A DNA stretch of 60,549 bases, filler included, from Sphacelaria rigidula (GCA_964200075.2; 6 parts of 6 records of this genome joined end to end with filler, not necessarily neighbours in it), one strand, 5' to 3'; shown: positions 20,121-60,549, numbered from the whole stretch's first letter. Notes: generated by a model not told the origin, from the sequence alone. Numbers and translations are program-made.

Positions 20121-20220
20121 NNNNNNNNNNNNNNNNNNNNNNNNNNNNNNNNNNNNNNNNNNNNTTAATTAATTAANNNNNNNNNNNNNNNNNNNNNNNN
20201 NNNNNNNNNNNNNNNNNNNN
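20121..20220. other. Artificial contig spacer
   Basis: Ns with TTAATTAATTAA. Confidence 0.99.
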
Positions 20221-20744: not shown

Positions 20745-23700
20745 GTGGACTACAGCAAGCCGCCTGGCTTTGACCGCGCGCGTAACCGTGAGGTGGGCAA
20801 TAAGGACATCACCCTGGAAACCCTGGAAGAGGCGTTCACCAGCGAGCACTGGATAGTGCGCATCTACAAGGTGAGGAGGGCGATGCACGTGTAATTATTC
20901 TTGTCATTGTTGAACTTTTTACGATGAAACGTTCGCTTCTGTTTCGTTATTGAATTTTTTATTATCATCATCATTTATCGTCATGTTATTAAAGTGTTGT
21001 TTATACTGTTTTTTTGTTGATCATTGCTTGCCATCATAATTTTATTGATTAATTGCTATTATTCTCTACTATTGTCTATTATTGCCCATTATTGCTATTC
21101 TGACGAAAAAAAGGAGCCGGCCCGTCGACTTGGTGCAAATTAATATGGTTCGGCTGTCATCACCAGGGTGGAGAGAACTTGCTTTCGATAATCTATGCGG
21201 TGGGGTTTTTGTCCGAAGTATCTGGTTCTCACCGTCGAAACCTTGAGTAGTACGTGAGGAAGCAAGAGCGATGTTGACTGAGTTTGTTTGACGAGACTTG
21301 TGGCGATGCCCGAGTCCTGACCCATTCGCGAGGCCAAAATGCAAGGCGTGTACCGGGCGGGCTGAGATGGGTCTATCCCTTGATATCTCATGAGATCACG
21401 GACTCGTCCGGAGGAAGGGGAGGGGTGTACTCATGATCATGCATGCCATAGGAAGGGGGGGGGGGGGCGTACTCATTTGTTGCTTGCCTTAGTCGTGTGA
21501 CCATTGACCACGCATCCCTTTCGAGACGGAGCACCGATGCCATAGGAAGGGGAGGGGGTCCTATTCAAAGTGTCACAAATAAACTGTGATTATTATTATT
21601 CATTGTTATTTATGTTATTCATTTGCTCTCTTTGTTCCACGTTCCGGAACGTGTCATTCTTTTTTCTAGTATTCTGGTGGTGTCGTTACCCAAATCTTGT
21701 TGGAGACAGTTTCTGAGTGAAGCAGAAACGAACTACCCAGCGGAGCGCTGAATGGGGCATCCATTATCGACCTGTCTATCATGCCTTTTTTTTTTTCTTG
21801 TCTCGCTTCTCGCTGGCAATCTCTCGGAAGCCCAACCCGTCCTGACAGAGTGAGAAAAGCTGTAGGACCGGTGAAGAGGAATAGACGCTGAGCCATGATG
21901 GTGTTGAAGTATCCAAGTAGCGCGACTGGAAACATGGAGTTAGGATGCACACGGCACTACACCAAGGCCGTGCTAGTTCCCAGTACTCGTAATGCACTAA
22001 CACGCATGCCATCGGAACAGAGCTTATTGGCTTCTCCTTCAATTGTTGTTGTCGGCATCAGGACTCGACCGCTTTCTGCACTGCGCAACATGTTTGTTGA
22101 CGAAATGTCGATGTTGGTCGACTGAACACGGTAGTCTTGCTCCGGGTTGGATCCGATGAGAACTCAATCAGAACCGATTTTTTTCAGCAGTTGCAAGACA
22201 GTCTAAGCAAGACGAACAAACGTTGCGTACACGAACACAACCGCTCCCATTGTAATTTCGTGCGCTTCGGTGTTTCATCGTCTCTCCCTGAACCCAACGC
22301 TGTGCCGAACTCGAGCGCCTGTCACGTCGCTGAGAGAGAGAGAGCTGTTGTATGCGATCGTTAGACAGGGTGCGCCTTTGCTCAGGTGTTCCGCATGTGC
22401 TGTCTAGCGCGGCTGCAATGCGCGGAATCTCGACGTTTTAGCATGAGGCTCTTGTGCTGTCGTTCCATCTATTCTGGACGCCGGTCTACACCTTTCGGTA
22501 TACTGTATGAGGGCGCATCAGCCGGGGTCACACAGGAGGAAGGTCAACACAGGGGCTTTTTTTCTTTTATTTGTTTATGGTACCCCACCTCCCTTCTGCG
22601 GTGCTTGCCTTTATTTTTTTACCGCGAGAGGGGTTCAGCAGTCCCTTTCCCTCGGCGACGGTTGAGTCGAATTTTGTCTACCCACGACATGGTCGCTCTC
22701 CAGTGTTGGGCATGGTGTGAGAAGGAATCCCAGATCGCTCCGAGAATTAAACCCACAACCCAACCGTCAGAAGGTTTCGAGGTCACCAACTGAGCCACCG
22801 GGGCGACCGGTCGGTTTATACACCATCGAATATTCGGTTCTCTGGGCAGCGCGAGCTAGATCAAGAGTACGTTGCTCGGTCAAGTTACCGTTCGTCCTTT
22901 CCGGCTATTTTTGTTGTCTGTGGAGCCACCTGTATCCGAGGCGAGGAAGAGAGGGAGAAAAAAAGTGACCGTGCTCGGAAATCATGTTGCCAATTTTTGA
23001 GTCGAGATACGCTCATCCTTGTTTTCGGGTTTCCATTTACTCCGTTTTTCATAATCCATCTTATCCCCCTCTCCTGCCCGCCGCCAGGTATCTTTTTCTT
23101 TCGCGAGCGTTTCCGCTTTGTTTGCCTCGGGCACTGTCGATCTTCACGGCTGGGTCCCTCTGGGGTTAGTTACTGTGCTACAATCGATCAATCAACCAAT
23201 TGATCACAGGTCGACTAGAACCACGCCGACCTACACGGAATACTTATTCTCTGTAGTTTAGTATTCCCGTTGTAATGAAGGGTGCACGGAATAGTGTTTC
23301 CCAGAGTGTTTCTTTAATTTATTGCACCGTGGATTGCGCTCGGCATCGCCCATGACACAATTTTGGGTTCTGGCCTTTTTTTGTTTTCCCCTTCCGAGAC
23401 AAGCACGCCTTTTTTCATAACACAAATATTTTGAGTGTCTGTCGAGAAATCAGTGTCGGGAAACCGCGACCGCCTTTGAAGGCTGAGCCGAGGGTGTGCT
23501 TCCGGTGTCTGTAACCATTGCTGGTGCCCATACAAAACAAGTGGTGAACGCTCGCTCTCACTGGTCCTACGATATAGCCCCTCTAAACGTGCTCTTTGCC
23601 CATGCCCTCTCGGTCGCATGTTTGAAGCCGTGCAGGCACACCTCGAGAGTGCTTGGATGATGACTATGTCGCGTTGCCCCAAGTCAATTGCACTGTCACA

Positions 23701-27610: not shown

Positions 27611-30229
27611 TATTTGATCAGTGCTTCGTGCACCCGCACTACGGGGCGAACAGGATTCTTATTGGAAATGTTTGGGTGGATCTTCCGTTTCTGTTGGATC
27701 TGGCGGAGTGTGGCGACGTGTTAGCGGGGTTTGTTTCGAAGCAGGTCCCGCGAATCATCTGATGTAGGTGTCGTTGTCGGTGTTGTGTGTGGAGTGAGAT
27801 AGATGGAAGGTCATGTGACAAAGTACACGTCTTCCATGAAAACGAGTGGTATGTGTGACAACATCGGGCAGGAAACGACAACATTGCCGTCATGGGGGGG
27901 GGGGGGCGACAATAGAGCGAACTTGAGCGATGTCGCATGACTTGTTCCTGCAGGAGTGGGATCACTGAGGTATAGCCTGTGGTATGGACGATGACCATCG
28001 ACGTGTGCACCTTCTATTTGTAAGGGAATGAGCGTGTCCGATCTTATTGCATCAGGTCGGCGCCGAGCTCCAAGGATTAGTGGTCGATTGTGGAAACCGC
28101 AGAATATTCAGCGCAATTCTTACGTCTCCAGTCTGATCGTGAGTCTTACCATTTATCGAACCTTGCTGATTGTTCCCTGTTGTGGTAGTGCTCGGATTGG
28201 CGAACCGCGGAATGTGCGAGGTGATTGAGGCATATATACATGAACGAAGGGGAGGGGAAACCCGTCCTCTGTGTGAGACTGTTATGCCCGTGAATGGGGC
28301 CCGATTTTGGGCACTATATATCGAGAAAATGGACCGACCAACTACAGTCAGTTTAATGCAGAAGAAATGAAACCTAAATGCGCTAATCAGGATCAATCAC
28401 AAGTACACGTGTCACTCGAAATGACGATGGCGCTCAAACCAAATGTACTATTCCAATTTCACAAAGTGAAGTTGGTTTCTGTTGCGGGTAAAAACTCGAC
28501 CAAGTGATTTTTTGCGACTTCGTTTTTGCATCAGGATTCTTCCGACCTGATTCTTGCGGTCGTATTCTTGCGATAGTTCTTTTGCTATATTTTTCCACTC
28601 TGAACCCTCTATTGATTTCGTTTTTTTGGGGGTCACTTCGTCAAACGGACACCAAACTCATTCTGCTTCAAGGGGGACCTGGACAAACAGCAGTTGCAGC
28701 TTCCCACCTAGTATCACTCTCCAAAGCGAAGTCTTGAGTAACAACCTCCAGTGTCAGGTACCTATGTACAAGTATGATCAACATCGAGTATCATGCTCCA
28801 AACGTACCTGACAAGGGGGCAACACCTCCGTACAGACAGCAGCAATGCTGGCGGATCTCACGACCTGACACTCTGTGACAGTCTGGCAGCCGGCAAGGTG
28901 GTTGTGGTAGTGTCTTTCTAGCGATATTCCAATTTTCAAATTGGTGTCTCAGGCTACTCCAGATTCGGCATGAAATTTCTGTAACAGAAAACAAGCTCGT
29001 TTTTTTCGGAATACTTCTCAAAAACGAGAACTTTTCGAAAAGACAAGCAGAACTCAACTACTCAAACCATGACCCCATTATATGGAGTACAGGGTACTAC
29101 ACTCAACACAAGACAACACAGCAGTTGTGCAGCATCACGAGAAATCACGCGCCGATTTATCGAGTTTGATGGGGTGGGGAACAAGTGATACAAAAAGCGT
29201 TCCGCACGAGGAGGAGAAGAAGCAACAGCAGCAGTATCAGCAGCATTTTTACTGCCAGTAGATGTACGCGGCTGGGGGTCGGTCTAAGTCAGCCGGTGCC
29301 GATTTGTGTGTACGTCAGCGCTGTTCAGCACGATGACTATCACTCGCGGGGTGCGTGGGTGTTGTCTCACGGTCGAAACACGGACCGTCTACGATCAGGA
29401 GCAGCAGCAGCAGCAGCATCGGCGCCGGTTAATTCAGACCCACCCCCAGCCATGTACATTTACTGGCAACGAATATGCTGCTGATATTGCTGCTGCTGCT
29501 GCTGCTTCTTGAGCGGACGGTCCACGGCACCTGTCAGCACCCCGCACACACACAAGATCTCGGACCTAGTTTGATATTTTGCTGGCGTCTCGTCAGTGGC
29601 TCGAAATTTCCCCCCCAGAGCGGAAAACACCTTATTTTACATTTGGGTGATTTGCGAGTCAGCATCACGCTCAAACGCGAAAATCAAACTAGGCGACGTA
29701 GCTTGGGTGTGTGGGAAGTGCGCGCAAAAAACCGCAGTCCAATTCTCCGCTTCGGTGTTGAGTTGTAAGGGTTGCGCGATCGGCACTTTTGGGTTGAGGA
29801 ATAGTAGCGTCTTTCGAGGTCGAAGATGGCAAATTAAAGAACACCGGTGCGCATTCTTCTTTTCCTGCCGAAGGCAAGTTGTGACGACATGCACTTTGGT
29901 TGCGTGCCCCCAGCCGCTTCTTTGTTCTGTGCGGCTGTGCACAAAGGGCAATTTCGCCTTTCAACGGCGAGTATCCTTTGAAGTGTCGAAGTACAGACGG
30001 AGAGTTGACAGAAGAAAGACAAAGCTGGTGGCTGCCTCATGTCAGGGCTCCAGAGCAGAAGTCAAGGCGTCGAGAGCGATTTTAGCACGAATACGTGCGT
30101 TCCATCTGCTGGCGACCGCGGTCATGTATTTAGTAACTGTCTGTATATATTATTAATAGTAATAACATCCGATTTTATATTTTGGGGTTCATACAACATA
30201 TGGGGCTGAAGTGGCATATCTGTCTTGCA

Positions 30230-30329
30230 NNNNNNNNNNNNNNNNNNNNNNNNNNNNNNNNNNNNNNNNNNNNTTAATTAATTAANNNNNNNNNNNNNNN
30301 NNNNNNNNNNNNNNNNNNNNNNNNNNNNN
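30230..30329. other. Artificial contig spacer
   Basis: Ns with TTAATTAATTAA. Confidence 0.99.
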
Positions 30330-31178
30330 AACACAGTGGCCCCGCACCGCCCGGGTCATAGAGCGCCCCAAATTCCACGAAACAAACCAGGGGTGCAAAG
30401 TCAGACCGTGGCTTTTGCCCCCCCCCCCCCCCGCCCCCTCTTCTCCGATAACCCGGCTGTAAATTGGACATGAAAGAAATGGAAGATAAAACTGTGCTTT
30501 CGGTGTCTGTTTATGTACACGGCCGCTCAAGGGACATAATTCAAGTTGCTACATGAACGCCTTTTGTGAGGGTCAACCCAAGAGGCGCCAGCAAGTGTTG
30601 TCTCACCCCATGCAGGGCAGTGCGATATCGTAACTACTTAGACTTTGGAGAACACTTGGGCCGGAAGACTCGTGAAACGTCGTCAATTTGTGGTCCACAA
30701 TCCGACTAGGCTTGAAGCAAACGATTTGAATCCTTCAGCATAGATTTCCCCGAAGTGTGGGGTGCGCTGGAGGATATAGGTGCCCTACTCGAGAAAGAGA
30801 GGAACCGCAAACAGACGGTTGAAGTAGACGCAAGATTGGCTACATCACATCAACTACACGAAGCTTGAAGCTATGTTGGTTGCATGCGCCATTCAATTGT
30901 CCTCTCTCCCTCCAAACACACCATTGAAAGGAACGGAAGAGAGTTCTCTGTGCGATGAACTAGCAAAAAAAATCATGAAGGTGTGTTGAAAGATTCAAGC
31001 GCTTATAGAAAATGAATTGTAACTTCCGAAACGCGTTCACTATTTGTTTACAAAACTCGCCAATGCGGATCGGAAAATTATGAATACTGTGCGAAAATCA
31101 GAAACCGGCCGACGTTTTGCGGGATGCCAGCAACGTAGCTTAGACTCATATTTGTCACCGCTATTGGTCGACCTTCAG

Positions 31179-34100
31179 GATATTAGGAGAATTGCAGCCA
31201 GCGCGCGCGGCGCGTCCTTCGTCCTGCCGCGAATTGGGGTGGAAACGCTGGGGGCTGCCAACAGGGAATGGGACATGCCAGTCGTGCCCTCTCAGCGTGA
31301 CGTCGTTCGAGGTATGGAGTTTGCGTCGGGTTCGTCGGTGGAGGTGGTGGCGGCGGCGGCGGTAGTAGTAGTGACATCAGCGGCGGCGAAAGGCTGTTTG
31401 TTTGAATGTTTCTGGAAGGTTTCCTCCGTCAGGGGTACTGAAATACACCGGAGAAAGATCGAGAAAATCACGCCGTAGACGCCGTTAACCTACACCATAT
31501 AACGAGCCCGTGGCCAAGGGTAGGGCACACCAATTCAGATGCCCAGTACGAATGTACCGTGCAGATATCGGAACGGCTTTTAATGTGAAGACAACAACAA
31601 CAACCGCAATTTGGTATGGTACGCCGCAGACTCAATTATTTGGGCACATCGATCCTTGCTACGTGGCTCCCGCCTGCACATAGCAATACTGTCAATACAC
31701 AGTGGAAAGGTCAATCTTGAGGCATCCCCGATTTTCAGCGAACACGCGTCTCCTCCTTCCGGTAGAAAATAGCGGAACTAATGCCGGGCGAGCCACTACT
31801 GTATATCAACCGACCCCCCCCCCCCACCCCCCTCCTTCACGCAAATCAGAACTACAAAGCCTGGAGAAGTGGCTGGCACGCGGGGGCGTCTGGGCCACAC
31901 AACCGGTACTGGCACTATTGACGGCTTGCGGTTCGGCCGTGCCGACGGGCTCAGAAGCAAAAACTGCTGACGAAGGGAAAAAGATAAAGGGGCAGCGACA
32001 GCAGAGGACGTCCGCACCGTGGAAGGGGGAGTTGGTGAACCCTTCAGACTATCCCACGGATGAAGCTCTGTCAGAGATGGTTGACAACTACGAAGCTCTC
32101 CTTTGTTGGCTGTATCTGCCCGCAGGTATGGCTCGAGGTTTCAGCGGCAGCATGTCGTTTTGTGAACGAAACGATTGAATAATACATGAGTCGTTGATTG
32201 GATCACCAAGGCTAGCATACAGAGTAGTAACTTGATATTATGAAAATGTATTCCTCGCCGTCATGTTGGCTACGCAGCGGATGCTCTTTATCCTGTGATA
32301 TGCTATCCTCTTTCATATTTATTAAACCATCACCTTCCGCAGGGCGACTCCGTACCCTTGAGCGATCAAGCCGCCTCTTCCTCGGGGCTTGGCCAGGGAT
32401 CTAAGTCGAGCATTGGCATTCCCACACTTCTTCAACTTTTATCAAAACACTCCCGCCTACTCGCGTCCTCCAGTTTTCAGACGCCGGGTACTATTGACAC
32501 TAGATTCAACCTATTAGTGTCGGGATTCGAACGAACGAAGCCGGCTCACGTGGTCGTCAATGTATTGTAGTACAAGTCTAAAGCCTTCGCATTGACTAAA
32601 TCCCGATTGTTTTCGCAGATGACTTGTCACCTTCACTTGAAAATGTGAGAGGCGGTAGGCGTTAGAAAAATAAGCAGGTCGTGTGCGGGACACGTTACCC
32701 CATATTTTGTTGTTGGAACAATACCGAGTAAAGCCCCATTCATGGACGGGGTGTTGTTGACAGTATACGCCCCAAAAACACGTGTTTTCAGCGGTAGCGT
32801 AATAGATATCGAGAAGTAAAAACGCAAAAAAAAATAATGTCAAAACGATCCGGATTGGTCATGTCAAGCGAAAATGTCAGGGAGCAAAAACGGGGGCTGT
32901 GCAGTCGTAGGCTTCCAAACGACCAGTGAGTCCGTAACTCGTTGAAAATTGTAGCCCGTGGCTGCCTCCGGAAGTGACGATATCAGAAAACTCAGGAACT
33001 CATTAGAAGCTGTCGTTCATAGGCAAGATAGTTTACACGATTCGGGCCGAATAATCTCGCCAGGACGCAGATCACCTCTCACGCGCCTCGCCCAACACCT
33101 GACGGCTCTTCGCGCTTGTAGAGTTTGAGCCTGGTCCGGCGAAAACCGGGCGTGCTCCGTCCCGGCTTGAGAAGTCAATGATCTTATGACTATGGCATGC
33201 CTGATCATGAGTACAAGCCCTCTCTGGTAGGGATCCGTGCTAACATGATTGGACACCATTAAATCGGGAATGATACTGTTATTTCGTCTTCGGTTTGTAG
33301 CACATGCACAAAAGTATCTTCGCCGACCGGTACACACAGGAACGGAATCCGTCGGCAAAGACTCTCACGACGATACCGCCGAGCGCGCCGCCGGTGGTGG
33401 AGACGCACTTTCCTGCTTCGTTGCTTACCGTGACGAAGGCAAATTGCTTTCTGCTGGTAGCGACGGTGATGATGGCGAGGCCGGCGTGGAGGGAGGCGAG
33501 GAGCAAAACCCCCCCGGATGGAGGGATACAAACGGGCAAGCCGCCGACCTCGAGAGGAAGCGCGCTGCCATCCAGGTGAGCCGCTCGATTAAAAACACGA
33601 ATCTCGACCCGAGCACTACCCGTCAATGACACAAGGGTGGGTACAGGGTGTCGGGTAAGAGCAGTGCTAGATAACTGCTCGCCCGTGGACAATGGTGCAC
33701 TGCTTGTAAAATTCAATTGAGTGACTGATTGTTACAGAATGACGGATCCGCTACGAATCCACCTGTATTCACGGGATAGACTTATCCCGAGGAAAGCCTT
33801 CGGTAGAGTTCGTCGAAGGAAACTTTGCAAAGAAGAGTGATTAACTGCAATGGACAAGGGTGAGACAAAACAAAGTGACGCAAATGCCAAGGTACGCATT
33901 TAGAACGATCTCCAGGTGACCCCCGACAGCCCCCTGCCAGAGCCGGGTAGGTTCAACGGGCTATAAAAAACAAGGAATCATTGCCGTCGACGTAGATTGC
34001 TATCCAGCTCCCTGGAGACGATACCCCTGCAAAAAATTCTCAATCATCAGCTCGACGATAAACAAGAAATAAAAATGACGGGGAACAGGGAAAGCGCAAG

Positions 34101-37100: not shown

Positions 37101-40011
37101 GCGTCCATCGTTGCTATTGGTGACCTGTAACGTAGTCATTTACGAGCATCGGGTAAACAGGAGTTCGGCAGGAGAGTCTGGCAGACGCGTGCCGTAGGAG
37201 TAAATTCCCTCGCTGAACCTTTCCCGTCGTGCGCTCCGCGTACCGATACACGACTAAGGATCTATGTCCGGATGGGTAAGGTGACTCGTGTACAGAGTCA
37301 AGCTGGGGATCATGAAAAGAGGTTTTCTCGGTGAGGAAGACCCTACCTGGATGCTGAAGAGGGATGTTGTCAAGTCTGAGATTACTTGGGTGGGGGGGGG
37401 CACTCCCACCTTAGTGCCTACCCGTAAATCTGACCCTCAAGGACTATTCAGCCCTAGGACTGGGTACGAAAGATACGGCGAGTGGGGCGCACTCGAATAT
37501 GCCGCCCGAAACTAGACATAGCGAAATGCATGGTAGAAGGCTCCTACCTGTCCTATCTGTCTCCTGGGGACGAAAAAAGCAAAAGTACCGATACGTGAAT
37601 TGTACCTCGTTTGTACGATACTCAGGACTCGTTGGGCCCGTATTACTGTGCATTTGAGCCTCTCATGGAAACTATGCCTCCAGATATATAGTATTGAAAA
37701 AACATCCTCAAAGTATTTCAATGTTTGTTCGTTGTTACCACGACAGGTGAAGCGTAGCGCGCTGTCGGCGTTTGCCTTGCAAAAGGTGGGCACCGCACTT
37801 GGCGTTGCTAGGATATTGCGGGCGTTGCCCCCGCATATACAGGTGATCTCTGCGTGTGCCTATTGACCTGCAAGGCAAAATCGGGGCATTTGAAGTCTAA
37901 TAACGCATACATGTATCGCAGGAAATACTGACGATGATACGTGAGAACCCGCATGCGATAGGTCCTCAGCAACAGAATAAACAGATGTATAAAGCCCCTG
38001 TGAAAGAACTGAAATTGTGCAATATTTACAGGGGGGCGGATCGATTTGTTTTCATCCGACGCCCACGTATTTTACGATAAATGGCGAATACGTCTTAAGC
38101 ATTTGTAGTATGTGTAATGGTCCGACTGTCGCCATCAGGGTGGAGAAAACGAGGGTACAATTCTCGACGCGTTGGGTTTTTTCTTCGTAGTATCTGGTTC
38201 CCACCGTGGAAAGCGCGAGAACATGAGTAACCGAAGTGTAGCTGACTGAGTTTGTGTGACGAGAGTGGACGCGGTGCGGGAGTGCTGACCCAATCCGCGA
38301 GATCGAAATGCAAGGCGTGTACCGGGGAGAGATGGGTTGATCCCTTGAGACCACAGACTCATCCCCAGGAAGGGGAGGGATTCGAAGTGAGACAAATAAT
38401 GTAAATAAAAAACATAGTATGAAGTGCACGGCTTATCACCTTCTTCATGGCAACTGCAGGGTACACTCGATTTCGCTTCGTTAGCTCCTAAACACACTGT
38501 TTCTCTTGCCCGTACTCATCCATGGATAAACGTTTCACGCTTTTCCCCGTTGATCAGTCTCACGCGTTTCCCCCCAAAGTACAGTACATTGTTTCTCACC
38601 GTCATTACATCTGCAGGGTATATGAGAAACCCGGTCTCGCTTCGTCAACGCCTAACACGCACTTATGTTCTTGTCCATATATCCATCCCGGTTGACCGTG
38701 TCACGCATTTCCCCCTTGAGTAACTAACGTGACTGCACCTGTACAGCCACAACTTCTTTTTCGTCAAACTTCCAACCCCTTCTTCCTCGGTGCGAGTCCG
38801 TGGTCTCAAGGGATCAGTCCATCTCTCCACGGAACACGCTTGGCATCTTGGTCTCGCGGATTGGATCATGACCACCAGCACTCTCGCTACGCGTCAACTC
38901 TCTTCAAACAAAACTCTATCCACCTTATTTTGGCTACTACTCACATCCTGACGCCTTCTACAGCGGAAATCAAAATAAAATATTTCGGAGAAAAAAAAAG
39001 ACGAACCTGGCGGGAATCGAACAGGCACTCTCTCCACCATAATAATGGTATCCGTTGAACCATTAGACCATCGGGGCGCGGCGGAACTGCAAAGCCCAAT
39101 TTCGACGGCGCACTCATGTCTTTGACCACCTGTTGCTAATTATTCCGAGATATGGCCGGTGATCCGTAGTGTAGGTGTAAATGGATGCCACTTGAACGTG
39201 GGCGCTCACAGGAGCTGATGAAAAATACGTAATCTTGACCGACAGGCTTGCAGCGGCCTGGTCTCATGGTTGGGACGGCGGATGCCATGAGCCGTCCTTC
39301 ACCAATCGTTTGGTTGTGTGTGCTGCCGCCCCATGGTCAACACGAGGGCCGCACCCGCCACATCTCCGTTCCCCACCACGGTTGATATCGATGCATCGTT
39401 GCTTCTGGTATGTCGCCTCACGTTTATGCAGGCAATAAATATGTCCCTCCACCAAAAACCGGACATTCCAACCAACCTCAACAGACTCGTCTAGCGGATG
39501 GATGTCTAGCTAGAAACATTCGCATTGACGCGACATGAATTTAAGCGCGAACAAGCACGTTTATACACGACTCACTATGCATGACTTCGGACCTCTTTTT
39601 GATGTGCTCTAGCAAACCTCCTGATACCCCCTACTACCTATTTCCTCGTTCCCCTTCAGCAGCGATTGCTCATACGATCATTTCAATCACCAACCCTCAT
39701 CGTTGACAACGTTCGTGGGAGGGCAACTCATTTTCGTCGTGTTCCATGGCATATTCAACGGGGGCAGAAACAGGGGTCTCCGCCTTTTGCGTATTGTTAA
39801 CGAGATCGTTTGAATGTGTGCTGACGACAATATAGTCGTGTCTACATCAAAACATTCCGAGGTCCTTTCAATCAAAACCATTGCGTTTCCATGTTGTGTT
39901 GTCTGCAAGTGGATCTGTTTTGTTCCCTCTGTTTCGAGTCGATCTATTTGAACCATAGCTCGTGCAGGTCACAGGAAAAAGGCCGCCTACGTGGAAGCAG
40001 CGCTCCCGTTG
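31179..40011 (+). CDS. Multi-exon hypothetical protein (internal part, unidentified)
   Basis: GT-AG exons at about 31179-31311 (DIRRIAAS...VVR), 31850-32125 (ELQSLEKWL...LCWLYLPA), 33339-33575, 35289-35405, 35779-36017, 36143-36268 (VDASQYKPGQLRVRV...), 37747-37842 and 39968-40011. Most junctions are phase-consistent; one (35405/35779) is unresolved. Confidence 0.65.
33000..33220 (+). repeat. Family-B structured repeat, partial copy
   Basis: GGTCCGGCGAAAACCGGGCGTGCTCCGTCCCGGCTT...TGACTATGGCATGCCTGATCATGAGTAC. Confidence 0.8.
34300..35060 (-). mobile_element. Decayed RTE-clade LINE fragment (post-RT C-terminal region)
   Basis: Broken frame IQMLRAKVVGDMLCGCATQVRSTENFESLRTTRHKLLLRAVEFRRKDR resembles the RTE motif KxRMLxAxVxxxxLYGCxTW...LRxxHHxxLxRxIG. 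It contains stops and frameshifts. Confidence 0.7.
37270..37630 (+). mobile_element. Possible 5' region fragment of an RTE-like LINE
   Basis: Non-coding tract (CTCGGTGAGGAAG...GCCCTAGGACTGGGTACGAAAG...GGCGAGTGGG) that I recall resembling brown-algal RTE leaders. Not verified. Confidence 0.35.
38105..38378 (+). mobile_element. tRNA-SINE family 2 copy
   Basis: Degenerate box A (TGTGTAATGG) and box B (GGGTACAATTCTC). Colinear with 21135-21425; ends at GGAAGGGGAGGG. Confidence 0.75.
38775..39078 (-). mobile_element. tRNA-SINE family 2 copy, inverted
   Basis: Minus-strand head GCGCCCCGATGGTCTAATGG (box A)...GTTCGATTCCC (box B). Body matches 38105-38378. Confidence 0.75.
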
Positions 40012-40337
40012 GTAATGTGTACACGTAGCAGCGGGAACGTATGTCGAATTTTGCTATAGCTCTTGCGTACACTGTGCCGCATTACACGCATAAAGATGAT
40101 GAAGCACGATGAGGTAATTTGACAACCCCCCAATCCCCGACTCCCTCCTTCTCACGGTTTCTGATGATCACTGCGTAATTAACGCCATCAGAAGTGCTCC
40201 TCGCCTCCCGGCGTCTCATAGAGTTTGATGTGTCATTCATGAAACCCACGTACAGATCCCCCCCCCCCCCCCCCTGCCCCGTCTCGCACAGGCTGCGTGG
40301 GCAAGGGTGAAAAACATAAGGCAACAAACAAAGAAGA

Positions 40338-40437
40338 NNNNNNNNNNNNNNNNNNNNNNNNNNNNNNNNNNNNNNNNNNNNTTAATTAATTAANNNNNNN
40401 NNNNNNNNNNNNNNNNNNNNNNNNNNNNNNNNNNNNN
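40338..40437. other. Artificial contig spacer
   Basis: Ns with TTAATTAATTAA. Confidence 0.99.
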
Positions 40438-44400: not shown

Positions 44401-47400
44401 TGGTATCGTTGGTTGGACAAGTACCCCCTAACGGTGTCGACTGTCGTCAAACAAGCTTCCTTCGCCACTCAAATTCTCATGTCGAACGGCGAGAATGAAA
44501 TGCTTCTCCGAAGTAAACGAATGCATCAACCGTGGTTTGAAATGGTGCTTTTCCTCCTTGACTGATTCCTGGTGTACCCATTGAACCACCACACGGGTGG
44601 CCCCTGGGGTACCTGGAAATTCAAAATTGTACGTTACAGACGTTGCACAACGCCTGCAATATCCAATTTTTAAGTTACAGGCACCCCGGGGGCCACCCGT
44701 GCAGGGTATGGCAGTGATTGATTGGCTGAACAAATTGATCAAGTGTCGAACATGAACTGATCCTCAGAAGTCAAGTTGCGGTGACATGATGGACATACCC
44801 GAAATAAACGAAAGCGGAAATGATCGCTACGGGCAGTGAAGAAAACAGAAAGGTTGAACAGACATGAAGAAAAACTGAAAATGGCCGACCTCTGCAACAT
44901 GGCTTCAGGTGGGAAAAGTCTTGGGCAACGGAGCCATGCTACGATAGGGGGGGGGCGTACTCATTTGTTGCTTGCCTTAGTCGTTCCACGATCGACCACA
45001 TCGCTTTCGAGACGGAGCAACGATAGGGGGGGGGGGGGGGGGGGTGATTCCGCGAAAAAATAGGCTCAGATGCGCCAAAAGACCTGGAACACTCGTAGTG
45101 CGCTTGTATTTGGATAAAAGCGGTGTAAGGTAGAATGAATGAGCGTTATATATCGGGGGCGAGCGCCTTCGAACAACTGTTGGCCGCTTCAAACAGCGAT
45201 TGAAGTGGAATTTCGTGGAACCCCCCCTTCCCCCCCCCTTATCGTAGCATGGCTCAACAGCACACACATCCATACTTGATCAAGAAAAAACCCCAAAAGC
45301 CGTGGGAACAGATTACGACTCATCTAGGTTGGCCACACCGTGGGGGTACGAGCTCTCACCCATGAACCCAACGGAAACAAGGCACCATAATGCGACTGGC
45401 ATACAGCGGGAGGAACACACACATATCTAGAGGGATATTGGAAGATATAGAGAGGGAATAGAGAGGGAGACTATAGAAGTATTGAAGCCCAAAGACATCG
45501 TGCAGTAGATCAGGTACAAACACACAAACCAGGGGACGCCGCAAAATTACTGACTGAGGACAAATTAACAACCGATAGGGAAATACAGGGGTATATGAGT
45601 TTCTGTGTTAGCCCTGCTTCCTCCATCCACCGCTAGTCGTGCACAAAGCGAGTTATTTTCACGACCATGTACATCCTGGATTCCTCGAGCGCTGTTGCTG
45701 CTGTTGTGCTAGCGGTGCAAGCTCTCCGATTTGCGACTCTCGATGCAGCAGCCTCTCGTGTGTAGCGGAGGTCCGATTCACGTTTGCCTTCGCGTAGCCA
45801 CGTGTCCTCGACCTCTCCCGCCACTTTCTCGCCCCCAAGATGTCATCCACCCATATTCTTCGTCACAGTGCTACAATATAGCCATGTAATTGATATCTGC
45901 AGCCCATGTGACGATTGTACCATATTTAAAACCTTTACCGGACGGGTGTCTTGTACTCATCATCATATTTTCTCGGGTTCAAATGAACACGGCGGTCAGG
46001 TTCGCATGACCCTCAACGTTCGTTATACCTGTTGACTATCGTGTGCTATGGGATGGTCTTCTTTGACTTGTTCAAAGTGATTCTTTCGAAACCCAATTTA
46101 CTCTGTGGTGACTAGTGCGTGGGGCTTCTAGTGCTGGAGTTTATAGTACTGTGACTTAGCCAGGCAGCACACTGTCAAAGGTCAACCATGATTTTCGTGT
46201 CCAACCGAAGCAGCTAATCCTACGGCCTATTTATTTGGCCACTTTTTTCTCAAACTAGAGAAGTAGTGTACCATCGCGGCTCCCTCTGTCAATGCAACGG
46301 GAACTTCTTGCGTTGAAACGTTTGTAGGTAGGCAATGCCAGATGTTGAGTTAAACAAAAAGAACACCGTTTGCGCGTCCGTCCAGAACATCTACAATAGT
46401 TCAGATGCCTCTTTGCATATGCACGAAGTAGCACGTGTTTATTCGCCGCGCAACTCATGATTTGATTGTATGAATTCCAAACCCATGCACCGATTAGGTC
46501 GTATAAATCGTCACTTCAATTCATATAATCCCATATATTTTCGTTCAAGTTTTGGGGAAAATAGTACGCGACAAAATAGTTCTTGATAGACTGTCTCGCC
46601 GTCAAATCCGATTTTGATGGGCAAGTGAGAATGTTACCTCACCGCCGCACGATATTGTAATGCATGAGAGGACCGCATGCTTAGAGGACCGCATGCTTAG
46701 AGGACCGCATTTGAATTTGAACATCCCTATGGCTGGGGTTAGGGTTAGTGTTAGGGTTAGTGTTGGGGTTAGGGTCAGGGGCGTGGTCCCTTCAGGGACT
46801 GGCCCGATTGGTTTCGAAAAACGTCGATCCTGGGGTGTTTTGGACTACGGCACGATCCTCTAAGCCCGCGGTCCTCTCACGCATTACAATATTTCCAATT
46901 TCGATTTTCGGAATTCCTTAGCTGCATTCACAATTCATTGGATGGGCCCTCTAAGATCAATGTAGACAGGTGATGCCGCAGCAACTCCGAAGCATCGATG
47001 GAGGCATTCCAATGTAGCATCCTTTTCAACCATGAACCAGCGGGAACGGTGTTGAGTTTCCTACCACGCTGATGGAAAGTGTTTCCTCTTGTGGGCATTT
47101 TCCGCTTCACCTGCCTTCGCGTAAATCTCTGCAAGTTTGTGACAGATCTTTTTGTTGCTTCAGCGGGAAACTTCCAGAGGCATGTTTTATCGCCGGGTGA
47201 CGCTGGGTACCTTCCTTTTCTTTTTGGTCAACAATCTTCCGGTGCCCTTCGCTTGGACTTCCACATGCATATTGATATATCGAAAATAACTTTGTACTAC
47301 GACTGGTAATGGTCCTCACGTCATGTTTTCTGCTACCATTTTCACGGCCTGGTTGACTTTGACGGGTAATTTTACCTTTTGCTGTGATCGCGGGTCGGAT

Positions 47401-50443: not shown

Positions 50444-50543
50444 NNNNNNNNNNNNNNNNNNNNNNNNNNNNNNNNNNNNNNNNNNNNTTAATTAATTAAN
50501 NNNNNNNNNNNNNNNNNNNNNNNNNNNNNNNNNNNNNNNNNNN
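50444..50543. other. Artificial contig spacer
   Basis: Ns with TTAATTAATTAA. Confidence 0.99.
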
Positions 50544-52153: not shown

Positions 52154-55100
52154 CTGAATCGCCGTCGTTGCAACGTTGGCGTTGAGCCACACGCGAAGCA
52201 TTCGTGCCTCAGCCTCATCCGCACCTCCCGCATAGCCCGGTGCAGATAAATCAACTCCTGCATCCACCCCGCCTTCGGGTATCATGCTCCCAGCGGTATT
52301 GTTGTTGACACCATAATCACCGGCGGTGGGTGTAACTGCAGTCGTAGCTGAAGCTGCTGCAGTGGTGCCGGCGCCAGCTACATTGTTGTTGTTCCCGCCT
52401 CCCTCCGGAGGCACAGATGGTGCCGCTTTTTGTCCTTCGGTTAATGAGATGTCTTGTGTCAAGCTTGCGTTCGAGGCGTTGGTTGCTTGTTTTGCCTGGG
52501 AGGGGATTTGTCCACAAAAAACGTTATTGAAGAAGGTGAGAAGCAGTATGCGCTATTGCTGCGGATAGTGGTATCGGTAATGACAGTACTGATGTCAAGA
52601 CGCCTGGTCAGTTTGTTCAATGTGTGAATAAAAAAAGTAGAAAGTCATAACTGGTAATCACCGCATCCTCCCAGCACGTTTGGTTCCATCCGTGTGTGCT
52701 CACTTACAGTAGTGATTGCTACAGGGGATCGCGGAAGGTAGACAGACAATGATGAGGGAAAGAGAGTGCCTGGCTGGCTATTTATCGTGTTTAACCAGTA
52801 GGGTAGGGCGTTTCTCGCGAACAGTGTCCATGATAAACCGACTGTTTGGGGGAGAACACACGTATACTGCACACGTACAGCGTCATTTCGATTGATGCTG
52901 ATACAATCGAAATTAGTGCACACAAGAAGCCTGCTGTTCTTGTTTCCCACGAGGTCTATAACAATGACGGAAATGGTTGCAGTAGTACCTTCGCCCTCGC
53001 TCGCTTAGCCTGTCGATCTTTAAATTCTTTCGCCTCCTGAGCCTTGATCTGTGCGTCATTCATGAACTGCACAGATCTGCCGTCTCTCGCCCAAAAGTCA
53101 AATCTGCAAGAAAGATGGATAGATAAGGTAGACAGATGAAGAGCAAGATAGACAAGAACAAAGCGTAGTACAGTAGTATCAGGGATAGTAGTGCTCGTAA
53201 AAGTCTACGAGAAATGCTAGCGAAAGCAGCATTATTCGTTAATTTTATGCATCGCGCGACACGTTTGATTGTTTCACATACACTTGAGCTTAACACATAC
53301 AGAAGAGTAAGGCACATACATTCATATTCGAGTAATAAGGCGAGATAACTGTCCTAGTAGAAACCTAAGTCCGTGTGAAAAAATATCCGCACTCCTTCAC
53401 CCCTTAAAGTGCAACGTACCGACCGCGATATGCCCGTACGAAGGGAAAGTTGGTGAGCAGGCAGTTATCCGCGCAGCCCCTGATCGGCAACGGGTAGTGA
53501 CCTCCGTCAGCATCGAAAACGTCGAGCACGCAGGTGAACGACACAGGTTTTGCTGAACGGAAGCTAATTTCCACTGGAATTTTCTCCATTCCTGCCCCCA
53601 GCTGTTTTAGTGTGTGCGCGCGTGTGTGGTTGGGTTTCCAAACCAGAGGCGGAAGCAAAAGGTCGTTCAGGGGTTGTCGCTGTCATGTTGTATGGAGAGC
53701 CCGATGGAGAAGTGACTCGATGAATAGATAGATGCATGATAGAGTAAGACCACGAGTTTTGCTTTCATCAGGCGGGTCCGTTAAAAGAGGCAAGAGTGTA
53801 GTACCCTCTTCGTCTCTTTTTTGTGTTATTGAAAACTTCTTTCAAGTCGACGACTCCGCGCAAATCATTCGAAGCTTTTTCGTCACTCACCACCCTGCCC
53901 CCCCCTACCCTGCGTTCTCTTTCACGTGGGGCTGCGTTACCTGTGCGTATGTTCATGTTTCACGGCGGGGGAAATGAGCCGTTTGACACGCTACAACAAC
54001 ACAGGTATTCCTGCCGACACGAGGTTCGGCTTCACAAGTGCAACAAAACGCAGGTGCGAGATATTACCCGTATTGAAATATGCACATTCTGGGTCCGCTC
54101 GATTTAAGTGAAACCGGTTACTCATTATTCTGCAGGGTACCTGGCAATCGTGGTCCTCGTTTCCTCAGGCGATAGCAAAATAATGAGTTCCAAATCTTGA
54201 CTGCAAAACAAAGTGTCCACGTGCAGAGGACATACGACGGTGCTGTTTGAAATACGAAGACCAATACTGCGCGTATTTTGCATAATGTGCTGCGATGTGA
54301 ATTTGTCCGAGAACCAGATGCGGGCAATATTTTACTTGAAAATAGGTGCACAGGATCAAGTGTCTTTCTTTCTCTGCCTGCACCACTGTAATGTATATGC
54401 GGACCGCGTGCTTTTTGGACCGCGTCGGATTTCAAAACATCCCGGGACTGACGTTTCTCAAGACCGCTCGGGCCAATCCCTGCATGGACCGCGTCCCTGA
54501 TCGTAACCCTAACACTAAGCCTAAGCCAAAGCCTAACCCTAACCCTAACCCTAACCCTAACCATAGGGGTGTTTAAACTCTGATGTGATCCAAAAACCAC
54601 GCGGTCCACAGATGCATTACACCTGTCTCCGTGTCTGTCTGCCGCTACCTCCGGTGTCATCTATCGATTGTTGTATGGCAGTACACCAGTGCTCGTGCCT
54701 ATACATTATCGGGAGGTTGCACGCAACAAGTATCACGTTATATTCAGTACATGTCATAGCACAGCGCCCGTATAGTACATGTATACGCATATGCAGGTAT
54801 ATCGCAGAGACGTATCGGGCGAATCAGAAAACAGAAAAAAAAGCAGGTCCATCTATGGCTTCATCACAGGCCCTTCGGCAACTGTTGCATCATCTCCCGT
54901 TGTTGAAAAAAGAGCTAGATGGCGTTCGTTTCCTTGTATCGACCATGGATCTAATATTGAATATATGCACCCCTGTTTTCTCTTCATCACACATTCGAGC
55001 CCCCCGCGCGCGATCCTTGAGTTGAGTCCATGGTCACAAGGGATCAACAGATCTTACTCCTATACATGCTTTGGAGCTGTCATCAGTCATTGGGTCAGCT

Positions 55101-58100
55101 CCCCCTCTCCCCGTGAAATTTCATCGAATCTCAATTTTGCCATTTCGCGACAACTCGACTCCAACGGCGGAAACGTTATTCTATATGAGCAGATAACACC
55201 TGTCGGGATTCGAGTTCACCAAATCCACCCAAAACGGCAATCGGAGAGCCAATTTGACCATCGTGGTGACACGGAATACGCTCAAGATATTGAGATCTTT
55301 GTTTGTGTGTAACATTCATATCTTTCGTGATGGCAGACCAAGACCAAACCACCGCGGAAACCGAATACACAAGACGGTGTATCAGTATTCCAAAAGACGT
55401 TTCTTACGAGCGTAAATCTAAAGAGGGGGTAGAGTGAACAGCGTGATGAATATTCAGAGGCATGTGGTCGACAGGAGGAGTGCCGACTCGCTGAATGAAT
55501 GCGGCTTACGTTTTCAGAAGCAAGTACTACGGACTATTGAGAAACGAGCGCTTTTACGGTAGGGGTGCCCATTTGTTTTCTGAGGCTCTGCACTTCGGGA
55601 GCCTTTTCATGACAAACATCTGGGCCTTAGTGTGCAGCCTCAGACAACTTTTGGGCTAAAAAGAACACCTCTACTATAGAATTACTCAAGCATGGAGGCG
55701 ACCTCCAGTTTCATGTCAAGGCGCGGCTGTTTGTGGTCGGAGTACCTGCTGTCCCTCGGGGAAAGCCACCGCCAAATCCACTGGGCAATACTGCGGCAAG
55801 CGGTACGAGACTTCCATATCACTGAAACCCGAGTTGGTCACTTGAAACATGGCCCTAGATGTCACCGACAAGGGCACAACAGGGAGCTCCACCGGCATCC
55901 TGGAGAATGACAAGCAAGGATATACTCCGAATCCCTGTGGGGAACGAGCATCCATCGGAGGTGAAGGCGGGCGGAGGGGGAAGAGTAGTAGAGAGTGTTG
56001 AAATCTTTCAAACCGCGGACTGTTGTGCATAGTAGTAGGCGAAGTGAAACGCTCACGCTCAGTACTTAAGAGAGATAGGTCGAATATGGTGGTAGACACG
56101 ATACGTTCTTCAATGAAGAGCTGCGTCACGGATGACGGTAGACACAGAATATATGTTAGACCGTTTCAAGCACCAGGGGTGATTTTGGACGTTGTCTAGG
56201 GTATGTTTCACCGTTTCACTTGGTACGTGTGGCACTCTTGTACTGATTTTCTGGCTCGCGGCACTTTAAACGTCGTAGGAATCAATATCGTCTTATACGA
56301 GCGAGAAACCTTCTTACGCGATGACACCGCAAAAAAACAATGTGACTCGTCCCAGGAACGATAGTAACCAGGACATTGGAGTTCTTTCTTGTAACTCCAT
56401 TTCGACGTACAATGTATATCTGCGCATACGCATGCTGCCCAGATTTGAGTGGCTGGAGTCCAGTTAAGAGCAGGTAGCGTTCGCGGTATGTTGTGCTTCT
56501 CTTTATATTCTAGCCTGAAGGAGTGCTCGACCTTACCACGGAGATGGCACGACAAAAGGAACTATGTACCCCGTAAACCGAGACGCAAACACAGAATATC
56601 TACAGGGTCACCATTCGGAGCTCCGGCTCGTACAAACTGATTTTCCAAGGCTTATCGTCCGACGCTCATCTCTTTGGTTCAAGTAAATTTTCATGAGTTT
56701 ATTTCTCCATATTTGAAGCTAAAATTATCAGATTAGAGGGTGAAGTGCGGCTGACATTTATACACAGCGTAATTGTGTGAAAAAGTACGCTAACTTGTTA
56801 CGTACAAAAAAGAAGAAGGAATATGTATGTACCTCCGGACATTACGTGAAGATCCCTTAAGTTGGAGAAGAGGAACTTGACCAGAACCTGTTGGTGTGTA
56901 GGCACAGACGGGTGTATGCAGAGCTACCGCCGGGGTGCACAATCTGGCATCTGTGTACAGTGCAGCTGCCGAGAACATTCTGATTTTATTCTTTATAAAC
57001 CTGGGATATGTACTGCAAGACAACGGCGAGAACCCCATTGTCCAAGATTTTTCCTAATGAGTTCGTTCGGATACTCTTGTTTTGCTCTGTTTTGTTTCGT
57101 TTTACGCGTGCCATGGGTGAGATAGATATACATGTACTTGTCAAAAGAGTGTTTGCTCGTAACTCGGTCGGATGAGTGATCGCTGATACATGTCTATAGG
57201 TGCAGGTTTCAAATACACTTCTGAAGAGTCAACTTAGGCGCGATCAGATTATTTCGTCGCGTACAACAGTCACTGATACGTTTAATTGTTCAACGATAGA
57301 GTGTACTCATGATATTGCATGCCATTGTCAAATGACCGTTGACTTCGTATTCCTCCAAAGCCGGGACGGAGCACGCCGGGTTTTCGCCGGACCAGGCTCG
57401 CAATCAATCACCAAGTGCGAAGCGCCGTGATGTGTTCAGCGAGTCGCACGAAGGGTGAGCTGCATCCTGCTAAGATTGTCCGGCCCGAAGCGTACTGATC
57501 ATCTTGAAGTCGGATGACAGCCTACAATGAGTTGGTTAATTTTCTGGTGCCGCCACTTCCAGAGACCGCCATACGGCTAACACGCTGCTTCATGGATGTC
57601 TCACCATCGTTCAACGAGAGGGGGCGGGGTAAAACTAAACATTTTGTTCTTGCATGGTGAGCCGAGCGGCGTTCTCACTTTTTCCCGTTGTCAACGAATC
57701 GAAATACAAGATGTGTTGTGTGAGACAACACTTCATCCTTCCGTCCGACTGAACACATCTCGATGACTTTGTGCGAGCTTGTTCGACGGAACAACTACGG
57801 TCTAAACTTAGACAATACCATAGGAAATAAGGTTGAGACTGTGATGTTGGTGCGTATCCCCCCCCACCACCCACCCACCCACCCATTAGGCAGTGTGCAA
57901 GCCGTGGCTATCTCCGGAAATGGCGATCCCAGAAGATGAAGCAACTCATTGTAGGCTAGCATCCATACGCAAGATAAGCAGTACGCCCTGGGCCGAAAAA
58001 TCTCAGCAGGATGCAGCTCACCCTTTGTGCAACTCGCCGAATACATCACGACGCTTCGCGCCTGGTGAACGTGAGCCTGTTCCGACGAGAACCCAGCGTG

Positions 58101-60417
58101 CTCCGTCCCGGCTTTGAAGGGGTGCGAGGTCACTGGTGATATGACTATGGCCTGTACGATCATGAGTATACCCCCCACCTCTATCGTGGAACGACTCAGT
58201 CATCATCACAATAAATGTATATTGACAACGCAGAAGAGCACGGGAGCGACACACACAGTAGGTCCTAAACTTAACTTCTAGATGGCACACATATTATGCC
58301 GTACTATGCCGGATGATGGCGATACGGACAGGTTGGCTGGGACAAACAAAACGATCTGACAGACGGATGATCTTTTGATTTATTTCTTGAAAAAAACGTT
58401 CACACACGCTTCTCACCCGTGCAGTGTTATCAGCAGATCCTCGAGCCTTCCCTCCACAAAGAACATTTTGAACATTCCATAGCATATACCGAAAGGTGTA
58501 GACTGACGTCCAGAATAGATGGGATGACAACACACACACACTCACAGCATGAAAAAAACACCGCCACCACATTCCCAATGTACGCTGATAACACCACCAC
58601 ACAAAAAGGTATCTACTCGTCACTGCGGACCACCTCAGGGCGACCGCCGGGCCGCTACCCGCCGCCGCTACAACCAAACGACAAAAACAAATCCATGGCA
58701 TACTCCATTCAGCTTCCTTCACGTATGATATAATACAGAATCGGTTGTCAATTACAACAATCAAGACACTCACATGCACGTTCAGCGTAAGGTATGGCCG
58801 TGCGCCTCGCTTCGGCAGCTTCGACGCAAGCCACACCGGTAGCGCAAATGACAAAACCCCAGCCCTCTTGGGCGTGAACGTTAGCCTTATCCTTGCCTCT
58901 TCGCCAGGAGCAAGGTTTCCCTCAGTGGGGCTGACGTACAACGCGGGCGTTACAGGGCCTGCGGGTTCGGCATTATTTTGGGGTGGAGGGAGGACGGACA
59001 TCCCCGTACCCTCCACGCCGTCCGCTTCTGGTCCCGTCCCTCTCAGGTATCCGTCGTCCATTATCCAATTCAGTCCCTGGTGGTGGTGGGGAGGGGGGTT
59101 CCAAGCATTTGTCATTATTATGCGAAAGTCGTATGTTAGAATGCTGATATTGGGTAGAGCGAGGCTTCGTGGCGTTTGCACAAATATCAGTCGTCCGGAC
59201 ACAACGCAAGCATATACTTCACATCCCTCATACTTACAGGCCAACCCCTCAAACGAGTCGAGTGGAAGAAGGGTCGGCACGGGGGTGGGTATACACGAGA
59301 CAAAGGTAACCCTGAATCGATAAAAAAAAACAATCGTAGCGTAACTGCAGTGAATACATCAAAACCAGGCGGGGCACCAGAAAACACGCCGACTGCTCCT
59401 AATGATTGCCCGTATGCCCAAGCAACACCGAAGGCGAACCCAAAACCATAACCAGAAAACAGAATATCTCGTCGGCAAACGCCTTACACCCCAAAACACC
59501 GAAACGACGGTGATTGACCGACGAGACGGATTGAGTGATCGACGGAGTGATTGCTTGATCGTTGCGCACGAACTGACCCGCCGCAAACTCCGCTGTGATC
59601 ACGAGATCGGCGTACCCTAGACAAGTAAATAATAACCCTCATCGATGGCGACACGACACTCCGGAAGAGGGGTCGAATGAAAATAAATACAGAGAAACGG
59701 TCATAGGGGTAGAGTCAACTGACAAGTAGGGGGAAAGAGAAGGGATATGAGGAAATTGCTAAGCTGATATTCGTACCAATCCCGAGGAAACCCCCTACAG
59801 TTCCCTGGGAGGGCTTCCTGTCAGGCGATCGATAGTACAGAAGACAGGAGTGCGGAAGCAGGCTGCGAGTCAGCTACCTGGAGATTCCATCATCTGGGCA
59901 TGGTTTATCACCCGTCAGCTCCAAAGGAGCGAGACATACCAGTGTCATCGGCTCAGAGAGAGGGGAGAGAGGCGGTAGAGCAAAGGCGACTGAAAAGAAC
60001 GGAAAGGAAACGAAGAAAAATATCACGAAAAATGGGGGGGAAACGGGCTAAAGACGAGAAAAAAAATAGAAGGGAAGGGATCAAGAAAGAGGGCGAAAGG
60101 GGAAAAAGGCAGCCAAATAAGGGAAGGACGTGAAGGGGCATTTACTCTACCTTCTCCGAGGCGTTCCTTAGGAGGAACTCTCCCTGGTATTGCTTCAGCG
60201 CGCACGGATCGCGACTGACCACGCGGGACCCAAAATCAACCACTGTGCTCGCAAATGTTAATGTCGGTTTCAGTGCCACCGCCGTTACTTGGAGACGCAA
60301 GCGAGTTACGTGCTCGGGCGGTATGCCCTCCAGAGACATCGGGAGCTCAAAGATGTGTTCACCAGGACGCTCTGGACGGTAGACCAGGTTGAAAGATAGC
60401 CTGTCGCCAGCTGCCAC
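52154..60417 (-). CDS. CFAP47: Cilia- and flagella-associated protein 47-like (ASH/Ig-like domains), internal exons
   Basis: Phase-consistent exons 60417-60151, 59076-58774, 55934-55746, 53601-53420, 53103-52989 and 52495-52154. Motifs: KPTLTFASTVVDFG, VSPTEGNLAPGEEARIRLTFTP, GVYPCLSF..VELPVVPL, SFRSAKPVSFT...GCADNCLLT. Confidence 0.8.
54387..54621. mobile_element. Second telomere-repeat MITE in the opposite orientation
   Basis: TIRs TGTAATGTATATGCGGACCGCGTG and CACGCGGTCCACAGATGCATTACA. (CCCTAA)n at 54504-54562. Interior is colinear with 46656-46888. Confidence 0.85.
55010..55260 (-). mobile_element. Degenerate tRNA-SINE family 2 copy
   Basis: GAGTCCATGGTCACAAGGGATCA matches 38794-38816. 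Box B-like CTCGAATCCC on the minus strand near 55210. Confidence 0.5.
57288..57617 (-). repeat. Family-B full monomer (321-nt period)
   Basis: GTTCAACGA is repeated at 57288-57296 and 57609-57617. The body is reverse-complementary to 240-545. Confidence 0.8.
57885..58190 (+). repeat. Family-B copy, inverted relative to 57288-57617
   Basis: GCGTGCTCCGTCCCGGCTTTGAAGGGG...GATCATGAGTATACCCCCCACCTCTATCGTGG. Confidence 0.8.
58478..58545 (+). mobile_element. 3' fragment of SINE family 1 with a (CA)n tail
   Basis: GGTGTAGACTGACGTCCAGAATAGATGGGATGACAACACACACAC is nearly identical to 18531-18577. Confidence 0.8.
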
Positions 60418-60549
60418 CTTTTGTGCAGGCAGCCGAGAGAAGAGATGGAGGGAGGAGGGGGGGGGGGGGGGGGGGCATCAACTTGTTTTGGTCCGGAGGG
60501 CATTCGACCCTACCCCCCGCCCCCCTTCCCCGCCGGAGCCGGGGGGTGG

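Follow-up and report, generated by a model that had tools for sequence, protein, structure and literature searches.

A very abundant, probably SINE-like repeat family found beside C/G runs

Introduction

The window analysed here, a stretch of 60,549 bases, carries at 57302–57605 one copy of a dispersed repeat, hereafter family B. The original prediction regarded such copies as terminally redundant monomers of a tandem or circular non-autonomous retroelement, with a covarying RNA core that either cleaves itself or recruits a reverse transcriptase. What kind of element is family B, and by which route did its copies reach their present sites? Several known systems offer a measure. Retrozymes and Penelope-like elements carry hammerhead ribozymes. 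Non-LTR retrotransposons insert by target-primed reverse transcription, a process recognisable from a single fixed end, nested 5′ truncations and duplications of variable length. In 'stringent' LINE/SINE pairs, the 3′ part of the SINE comes from the partner LINE and is recognised by the reverse transcriptase of that LINE. In the logic of Alu and L1, a homopolymer tail anneals to a homopolymer that has been nicked in the target, and this homopolymer then forms the beginning of the duplication.

Results

Composition of the window

The window consists of six pieces of ~10 kb each, with spacers of N and TTAATTAATTAA between them, so distances that span the joins are meaningless. Its GC content is 46–55%.

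10012–10111, 20121–20220, 30230–30329, 40338–40437 and 50444–50543: spacers with N runs around TTAATTAATTAA

Across the window, no tRNA gene was found and Rfam gave no match at gathering scores. The 312 stop-free open reading frames (ORFs) of at least 75 amino acids in the window contained no reverse transcriptase or endonuclease domain. Pfam domains were present in two of them, both DUF7869, and these fragments may represent a decayed mobile-element gene.

11660–12157 (−): DUF7869 fragment (Pfam, E 2.6e-4)
13363–13746 (−): DUF7869 fragment (Pfam, E 7.1e-8)

Additionally, three consecutive long open frames (602, 542 and at least 995 amino acids) occupy 2693–10011 (−); their products are of low complexity and carry no Pfam domain, and the longest, the one product searched, returned no homolog from the protein collection. 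An exon-like stretch at ~58760–59000 (−) resembles an Ig domain of CFAP65 type, known from proteins of cilia and flagella (feature score 0.94), and, together with the labels of the sequencing runs considered below, points to a flagellate alga or protist. Interstitial telomere repeat arrays of the TTAGGG type lie at 46736–46780 (7.5 units) and 54504–54562 (9.8 units). Two spliced-leader motifs were negative or at chance level.

Nine pieces with a common 3′ end

BLASTN and two nhmmer profiles located nine pieces of family B on five of the six pieces of the window, comprising four long copies (~300 nt), one copy that runs off the window start, three minis (64–69 nt) and one 25-nt end fragment.

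57302–57605 (−, the sense strand): long copy of ~304 nt, with its 3′ end ...CATGAGTACA at 57302 (BLASTN and nhmmer)
57885–58170 (+): long copy, 5′-truncated by ~20–30 nt, located after C8-ACC-(ACCC)4 (57858–57884) and ending in GAGTATA
240–541 (+): long copy, full length
32939–33215 (+): long copy, in which a 9-nt deletion takes one strand of core hairpin 1; CTCGTTGAA lies just upstream
1–67 (+): 3′ part of the copy that runs off the window start, with C7 (61–67) after it
21468–21536 (−): mini 2, 69 nt, core only, with a ~20-nt duplication on each side (21443–21467, 21537–21558) that starts at the C-run
21426–21450 (−): extreme 5′-truncated copy, the last 25 nt of the long type, with flanks GGAAGGGGAGGGG; an earlier insertion at the same site as mini 2
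44956–45019 (−): mini 3, 64 nt, with ACGATA plus a G-run on both sides (44941–44955, 45020–45044)
40258–40337 (+): C17 immediately followed by mini 4 (40275–40337), which is cut by the end of its piece

With the 200–600 copy as query, BLASTN gave identities of 77.9% over 307 nt to 57607–57302 (−), 74.5% over 298 nt to 57880–58176 (+), 73.2% over 276 nt to 32950–33215 (+) and 84.7% over 59 nt to 8–66. An nhmmer profile built on the four long copies recovered seven pieces at E ≤ 7.7e-5, and a core profile recovered eight at E ≤ 3.3e-4. The ninth (40274–40313) appeared at E 0.17, and its alignment to mini 2 was matched in score by 0 of 2000 shuffles. The long copies are 71–78% identical to one another, indicating that the family is old. 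The five or more long and two mini copies of the original prediction were thus present at their places, but one of the long copies is the piece cut by the window start, and a further mini and the 25-nt fragment join the list. The core quoted there, the end-repeat periods of 321, 94 and 79 nt and the recurring ACGATAG plus G-run could all be found in the sequence.

The pieces agree at one end. All eight with a visible 3′ end share the terminus GAGTA[CT][AG], and the sense strand ends in ...CATGAGTAC(A/G). Their 5′ ends differ, giving lengths of ~304, ~302, ~286, ~277, 69, 64 and 25 nt in addition to the piece at the window start, and form discrete classes rather than a smear. Two long copies have the common start ATGGTGAGAC..., one of them with a duplication right there; the longest copy in the window measures ~304 nt, and homology further 5′ was seen in none of the four long copies. 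The 3′ module (64–96 nt) is the sole part present in all size classes (~300, ~96, 64–69 and 25 nt), and it stands alone in the three minis.

End repeats and empty sites

The end repeats of individual copies could be compared with one another and with paralogous sites within the window.

57285–57301 (−): 3′ target-site duplication of the 57302–57605 copy, holding the CTATCGTTGAAC motif; 13/15 identical to 57606–57620, with 9/3000 shuffles as good
57606–57629 (−): 5′ target-site duplication (57606–57620), with an interrupted C-run (57620–57629) ahead of it in the sense direction
58171–58179 (+): CCCCCCACC, found again at 57860–57868; probable target-site duplication of the 57885 copy (9/9, 117/3000 shuffles, weak alone)
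38368–38379 (+): paralogous empty site for both insertions at the 214xx locus, with GGAAGGGGAGGG once and flanks that align on both sides
45211–45255 (+): inverted paralog of the mini-3 target, uninterrupted and hence an empty site; 0/2000 shuffles for each flank

At the 214xx locus, GGAAGGGGAGGG occurs three times, around the 25-nt fragment and the 69-nt mini, versus once at 38368–38379, where the left flank matches at 34/40 (0/2000 shuffles) and the right flank at 17/20 (1/2000 shuffles). The duplication of mini 2 comprises the run plus 12 nt, with 8 nt from the start of the older fragment included (18/19 match, 0/3000 shuffles), and the mini-3 insertion duplicated the run plus TATCGT. Both end repeats, of 94- and 79-nt period, start at the C-run and reach 4–12 nt beyond it. 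The two paralogous empty sites identify these "terminal repeats" as duplicated target DNA. The 321-nt-period pair behaves the same, being a 13/15 direct repeat equalled in 9/3000 shuffles. Duplication lengths are variable (13/15 nt, 18/19 nt, C-run plus 6 nt, and 9 nt), and two of the four long copies, those at 240 and 32939, have no detectable target-site duplication. The proposed terminal redundancy, with an end motif belonging to the element, gives way to locus-specific target-site duplications, established by empty sites for the 94- and 79-nt cases and resting on the 13/15 repeat for the 321-nt case. This is one of the outcomes that the original prediction had named as counting against it.

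Both target regions have features of their own. The 214xx insertions lie in a dispersed host repeat (21145–21424 and 38117–38379, 75–83% identity) that ends in GGAAGGGGAGGG. The region around mini 3 contains a ~45-nt inverted repeat, 44931–45057/45211–45255 (25 nt at 96%, 41 nt at 80%), which encloses ~150 nt; the inverted repeat at 44931–45255 is possibly a small foldback element into which mini 3 inserted.

C-runs and the recurring motif

A C-run lies 0–14 nt upstream on six of the eight visible 5′ sides and abuts five of the eight visible 3′ ends, one of these runs being interrupted; the 3′ junction of the 57302 copy has none. One empty site carries the C-run, which therefore pre-existed in the target, and any templated C tail of the RNA is conjectural. 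The window as a whole holds 12 G/C runs of at least 11 nt versus 0.03 expected (first-order resampling, 200 sets, largest value 1). Long homopolymers include 20299–20317 (C19), 60457–60475 (G19), 30418–30432 (C15), 27894–27906 (G13) and 15519–15555 (G11...C11), and most long G/C runs adjoin no recognisable family B piece. Such runs may have arisen as insertions of the tail alone, or through other elements that used the same machinery.

The ACGATAG plus G-run was assigned in the original prediction to the element itself. A motif of 14 nt indeed recurs at element ends, and the 3′ flanks at 57285 and 58180 have 13/14 nt in common (4/2000 shuffles). However, the recurrence at 58180 arises because an older fragment of the family sits there, so at least part of it reflects an old piece that was struck again.

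58180–58202 (+): older family B fragment, matching an internal stretch of the mini-3 core at 20/23 positions (0/2000 shuffles)

We read the motif as an insertion hot spot, in which old pieces were struck again. This account does not fully cover CTCGTTGAA, which also occurs just upstream of the 32939 copy and is absent from the 3′ flank of that copy.

A predicted core fold

RNAalifold, applied to six cores, predicted three helices with 17 pairs (−9.6 kcal/mol) in the sense direction, versus 4 pairs (−2.56) in the antisense direction. The strand bearing the fold is the same as the RNA strand deduced from insertion polarity and truncation, and two invariant G-U pairs were found in the core, both as originally proposed. 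The claim of a covarying fold fared differently. The covariation term was +0.89, a penalty; nine of the 17 consensus pairs are invariant and two show one double change each, a result reached by 60 of 500 column shuffles and thus not significant. The test is weak either way, because most copies are dead and drift freely and the alignment comprises six cores. Folding z-scores of the core ranged from −1.07 to +0.17 in six copies, like shuffles, and those of the whole element were unremarkable (−0.76 and −2.03 sense, −0.37 antisense). Favouring structure, the mini subfamily has GAAA in place of a 9-nt loop with the stem kept, and one core pair reads A-U, A.C and G-C across copies. The starts of minis 3 and 4 coincide precisely with the 5′ edge of the closing stem, TGC(T/C)CC, mini 2 begins three nt earlier, and the ~96-nt class begins at the foot of the preceding hairpin. 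The strand-specific three-helix core is a possible fold, predicted without statistical support.

Ribozyme and small-RNA models

Rfam comparison at E ≤ 10 over 57200–58300, 1–620 and 21380–21600, which cover long and mini copies, returned 4, 2 and 1 matches, respectively, and no ribozyme family was among them; the prediction of no recognisable ribozyme class agrees with this outcome. The tRNA, 5S, 7SL and snRNA models likewise gave no match at E ≤ 10 in the family B regions examined. The hammerhead box CUGANGA was found on neither strand of eight copies. TRF detected no tandem array at any copy, and the head-to-tail arrangement typical of satellite DNA is thus absent as well. The retrozyme reading thus fails its defining tests, since ribozyme, hammerhead box and tandem array are all absent. 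Two other candidates were rejected. snoRNA-like matches on the antisense strand scored 17–19 bits against a gathering score of 42, which is chance level, and strings resembling an A-box and B-box, noticed by eye in the 240 copy, are not kept by other copies.

Abundance in public sequencing runs

Contigs of four coded public runs were aligned at 80% likeness over 55500–60549 (5,050 nt); the run labels include 'algae metagenome' and 'protist metagenome'. Over this stretch X2 contributed 54,522 contigs, X9 97,163 and X8 10,170, counts that include other repeats and G-runs. In X2 the summed contig depth reached 6.6 million at 57359–57527 versus 34.5 in flanking unique DNA, although summed depth is not copy number. 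With the same reservation that summed depth differs from copy number, the pile-up on family B is ~10^5-fold over flanking unique DNA, and this order of magnitude fits nine pieces in 60 kb. The pile-up occurs under three organism labels, those of X8 and X9 differing from that of X2. Contigs leave the element at 57396–57400 into a G-run in all three (310 in X2, 296 in X8 and 95 in X9), and this shared exit indicates a discrete ~96-nt class located after a C-run. Run X10 had been guessed to be RNA; its depth was ~0.07 of that of X2 at family B and also at the unrelated repeat at 58373–58541, so X10 behaves like DNA.

Other parts of the same stretch are also repetitive. A second high-copy repeat (CATATACC...ACACAC) occurs at 58483–58541 and 18474–18577, with an X2 depth of 482,041 versus ~35 in unique DNA, and this repeat, in the 58373–58541 region, is essentially absent from X8 and X9, the two runs with other labels. 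The spacer between the inverted long copies (57697–57865) has ~10 times the unique depth in X2 and is also covered in X10 and X9, and is thus a low-copy repeat.

Searches elsewhere gave little. A conserved pattern of 19 nt, scanned against metagenomes, returned 29 loci, all sharing the seed alone (19–30 nt), as expected by chance, and two scans of viral contigs for family B returned 2 and 0 loci, seed-only. Full-text literature searches by element sequence or C tail met no report of such an element among the papers listed; one antibody paper matched and was unrelated.

Discussion

Taken together, family B is likely a very high-copy, old, non-autonomous non-LTR retroposon of SINE-like kind, residing in the large genome of a flagellate alga or protist and inserting beside C/G runs via RNA. 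Its common 3′ end, varied 5′ ends and duplications verified by empty sites, along with a core present in every size class, support the option of a non-autonomous retroelement with a core that recruits reverse transcriptase. On this reading, the template would be an RNA whose strand ends in ...CAUGAGUACA(C)n, and a reverse transcriptase supplied in trans would convert it into DNA at a nick in the target (target-primed reverse transcription). Priming would take place at or beside a G-run complementary to the C-run, and the second strand would be cut 0–14 nt beyond the run, leaving each insertion flanked by a 9–25-nt duplication that begins with the C-run. We infer both the RNA intermediate and the priming on G-runs, taking the mechanism from what is established for non-LTR retrotransposons. 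Because a duplicated C-run persists upstream of every copy, old copies would be struck again, and re-insertion into them would yield nested or adjacent pieces that look terminally redundant. The 3′ module (64–96 nt) would act as the cis signal for the partner enzyme, possibly as a three-helix junction; its presence throughout the size classes suggests that it is probably both the minimal mobilised unit and the recognition signal of the partner reverse transcriptase. Fold and recognition role alike are inferred.

Classical SINEs are described as having a head from a small RNA gene and a 3′ part from a LINE (PMC7245038, PMC4494074). Family B is short, non-coding, dispersed and high in copy number (nine pieces on five of six window pieces; pile-up in four runs), with target-site duplications of variable length and 5′ truncation. 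A Pol III small-RNA head was not found among tRNA, 5S, 7SL and snRNA models, and a divergent or novel head is possible. Similar to the SINEs of stringent LINE/SINE pairs, family B combines very high abundance with a conserved 3′ module, variable-length duplications, 5′-truncated copies and old copies decayed to 71–78% identity. It differs from them in showing no detectable tRNA, 5S, 7SL or snRNA head and no partner LINE in the window, in having a C-run as tail or target rather than poly(A) or a microsatellite, and in the mobilisation of units down to 64–69 nt. As with Alu and L1, the homopolymer abutting the 3′ end opens the duplication, and insertions are concentrated at runs of this sort; here, however, the homopolymer consists of C (G on the strand that is primed) and pre-existed in the target at one empty site. 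With retrozymes and Penelope-like elements, family B shares the character of a short, non-autonomous, RNA-mediated repeat with some copies head to head, whereas hammerheads, long terminal repeats (its end repeats are 9–25 nt) and tandem units are absent.

We weighed several other explanations of the same pieces. A retrozyme-like reading, in which the copies are units of an RNA replicon that is tandem or circular, with a self-cleaving ribozyme of a new class as core and the end motif as unit junction, would account for a core that can be drawn with a three-way junction in just one of the two strands, for the starts of minis 3 and 4 at the edge of the closing stem and of the ~96-nt class at the hairpin foot, and for the 14-nt motif recurring at element ends. 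We nevertheless consider it very unlikely, given no ribozyme family at E ≤ 10 in the three regions compared, no CUGANGA box on either strand of eight copies, covariation that is not significant and a stability equal to that of shuffles. The tandem array that monomers would form is missing, the end repeats of two minis are proven target DNA by empty sites, and the back-joint named among the joints listed runs from sense ~247 to ~76, not from end to start. The proposals of self-cleavage and of tandem or circular monomers are not supported, and nothing found shows a self-cleaving or circular RNA element. A narrower variant, to which we give a similarly slight chance, takes the 64–69-nt 3′ module as a new structured RNA that would be cut, by itself or by another agent, where the closing stem begins on its 5′ side, much as HDV-like and hatchet ribozymes cleave at their own 5′ boundary; a mini RNA would then be released for retroposition. 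If true, such processing would account for the TGC(T/C)CC start of minis 3 and 4 and for where the ~96-nt class starts, and it would mean an undescribed self-cleaving motif in ~10^5 copies per genome in several species.

A less remote but still unlikely explanation is that the pieces are the 5′-truncated 3′ untranslated ends of an autonomous LINE and not a separate element, as LINE tails would likewise share a 3′ end, show nested 5′ truncations and variable duplications, and lack a Pol III-type head. Against this, two long copies share the start ATGGTGAGAC..., one with a duplication there, the four long copies in the window extend no further 5′, none of the 312 ORFs has a reverse transcriptase domain, and many contigs share one ~96-nt start abutting a C-run. 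Least probable of all, to the point of being hardly tenable, is a DNA transposon, MITE or foldback element, for which the inverted pairs 57302–57605/57885–58170 and 44931–44955/45231–45255 would be terminal inverted repeats. Two loci do show the inverted arrangement, but the long arms are ~78% alike, no closer than unlinked copies, and the left arm has its own flanking duplication. Duplication lengths vary, copies are mostly solitary and keep a single terminus, and the spacers of the two loci are unrelated.

The SINE-like retroposon, our preferred reading, makes family B apparently a main repeat of a large, poorly annotated algal or protist genome, occurring about once per 7 kb in the window. 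On present evidence it does not open a new ribozyme class, and its interest for mobile-element research is moderate. Insertion beside C/G runs and mobilised units down to 64–69 nt are unusual for an element of this kind. The minis define a minimal cis element and could help to find and study the partner reverse transcriptase. Given its abundance and its occurrence under at least three organism labels, family B matters for the masking and annotation of those genomes.
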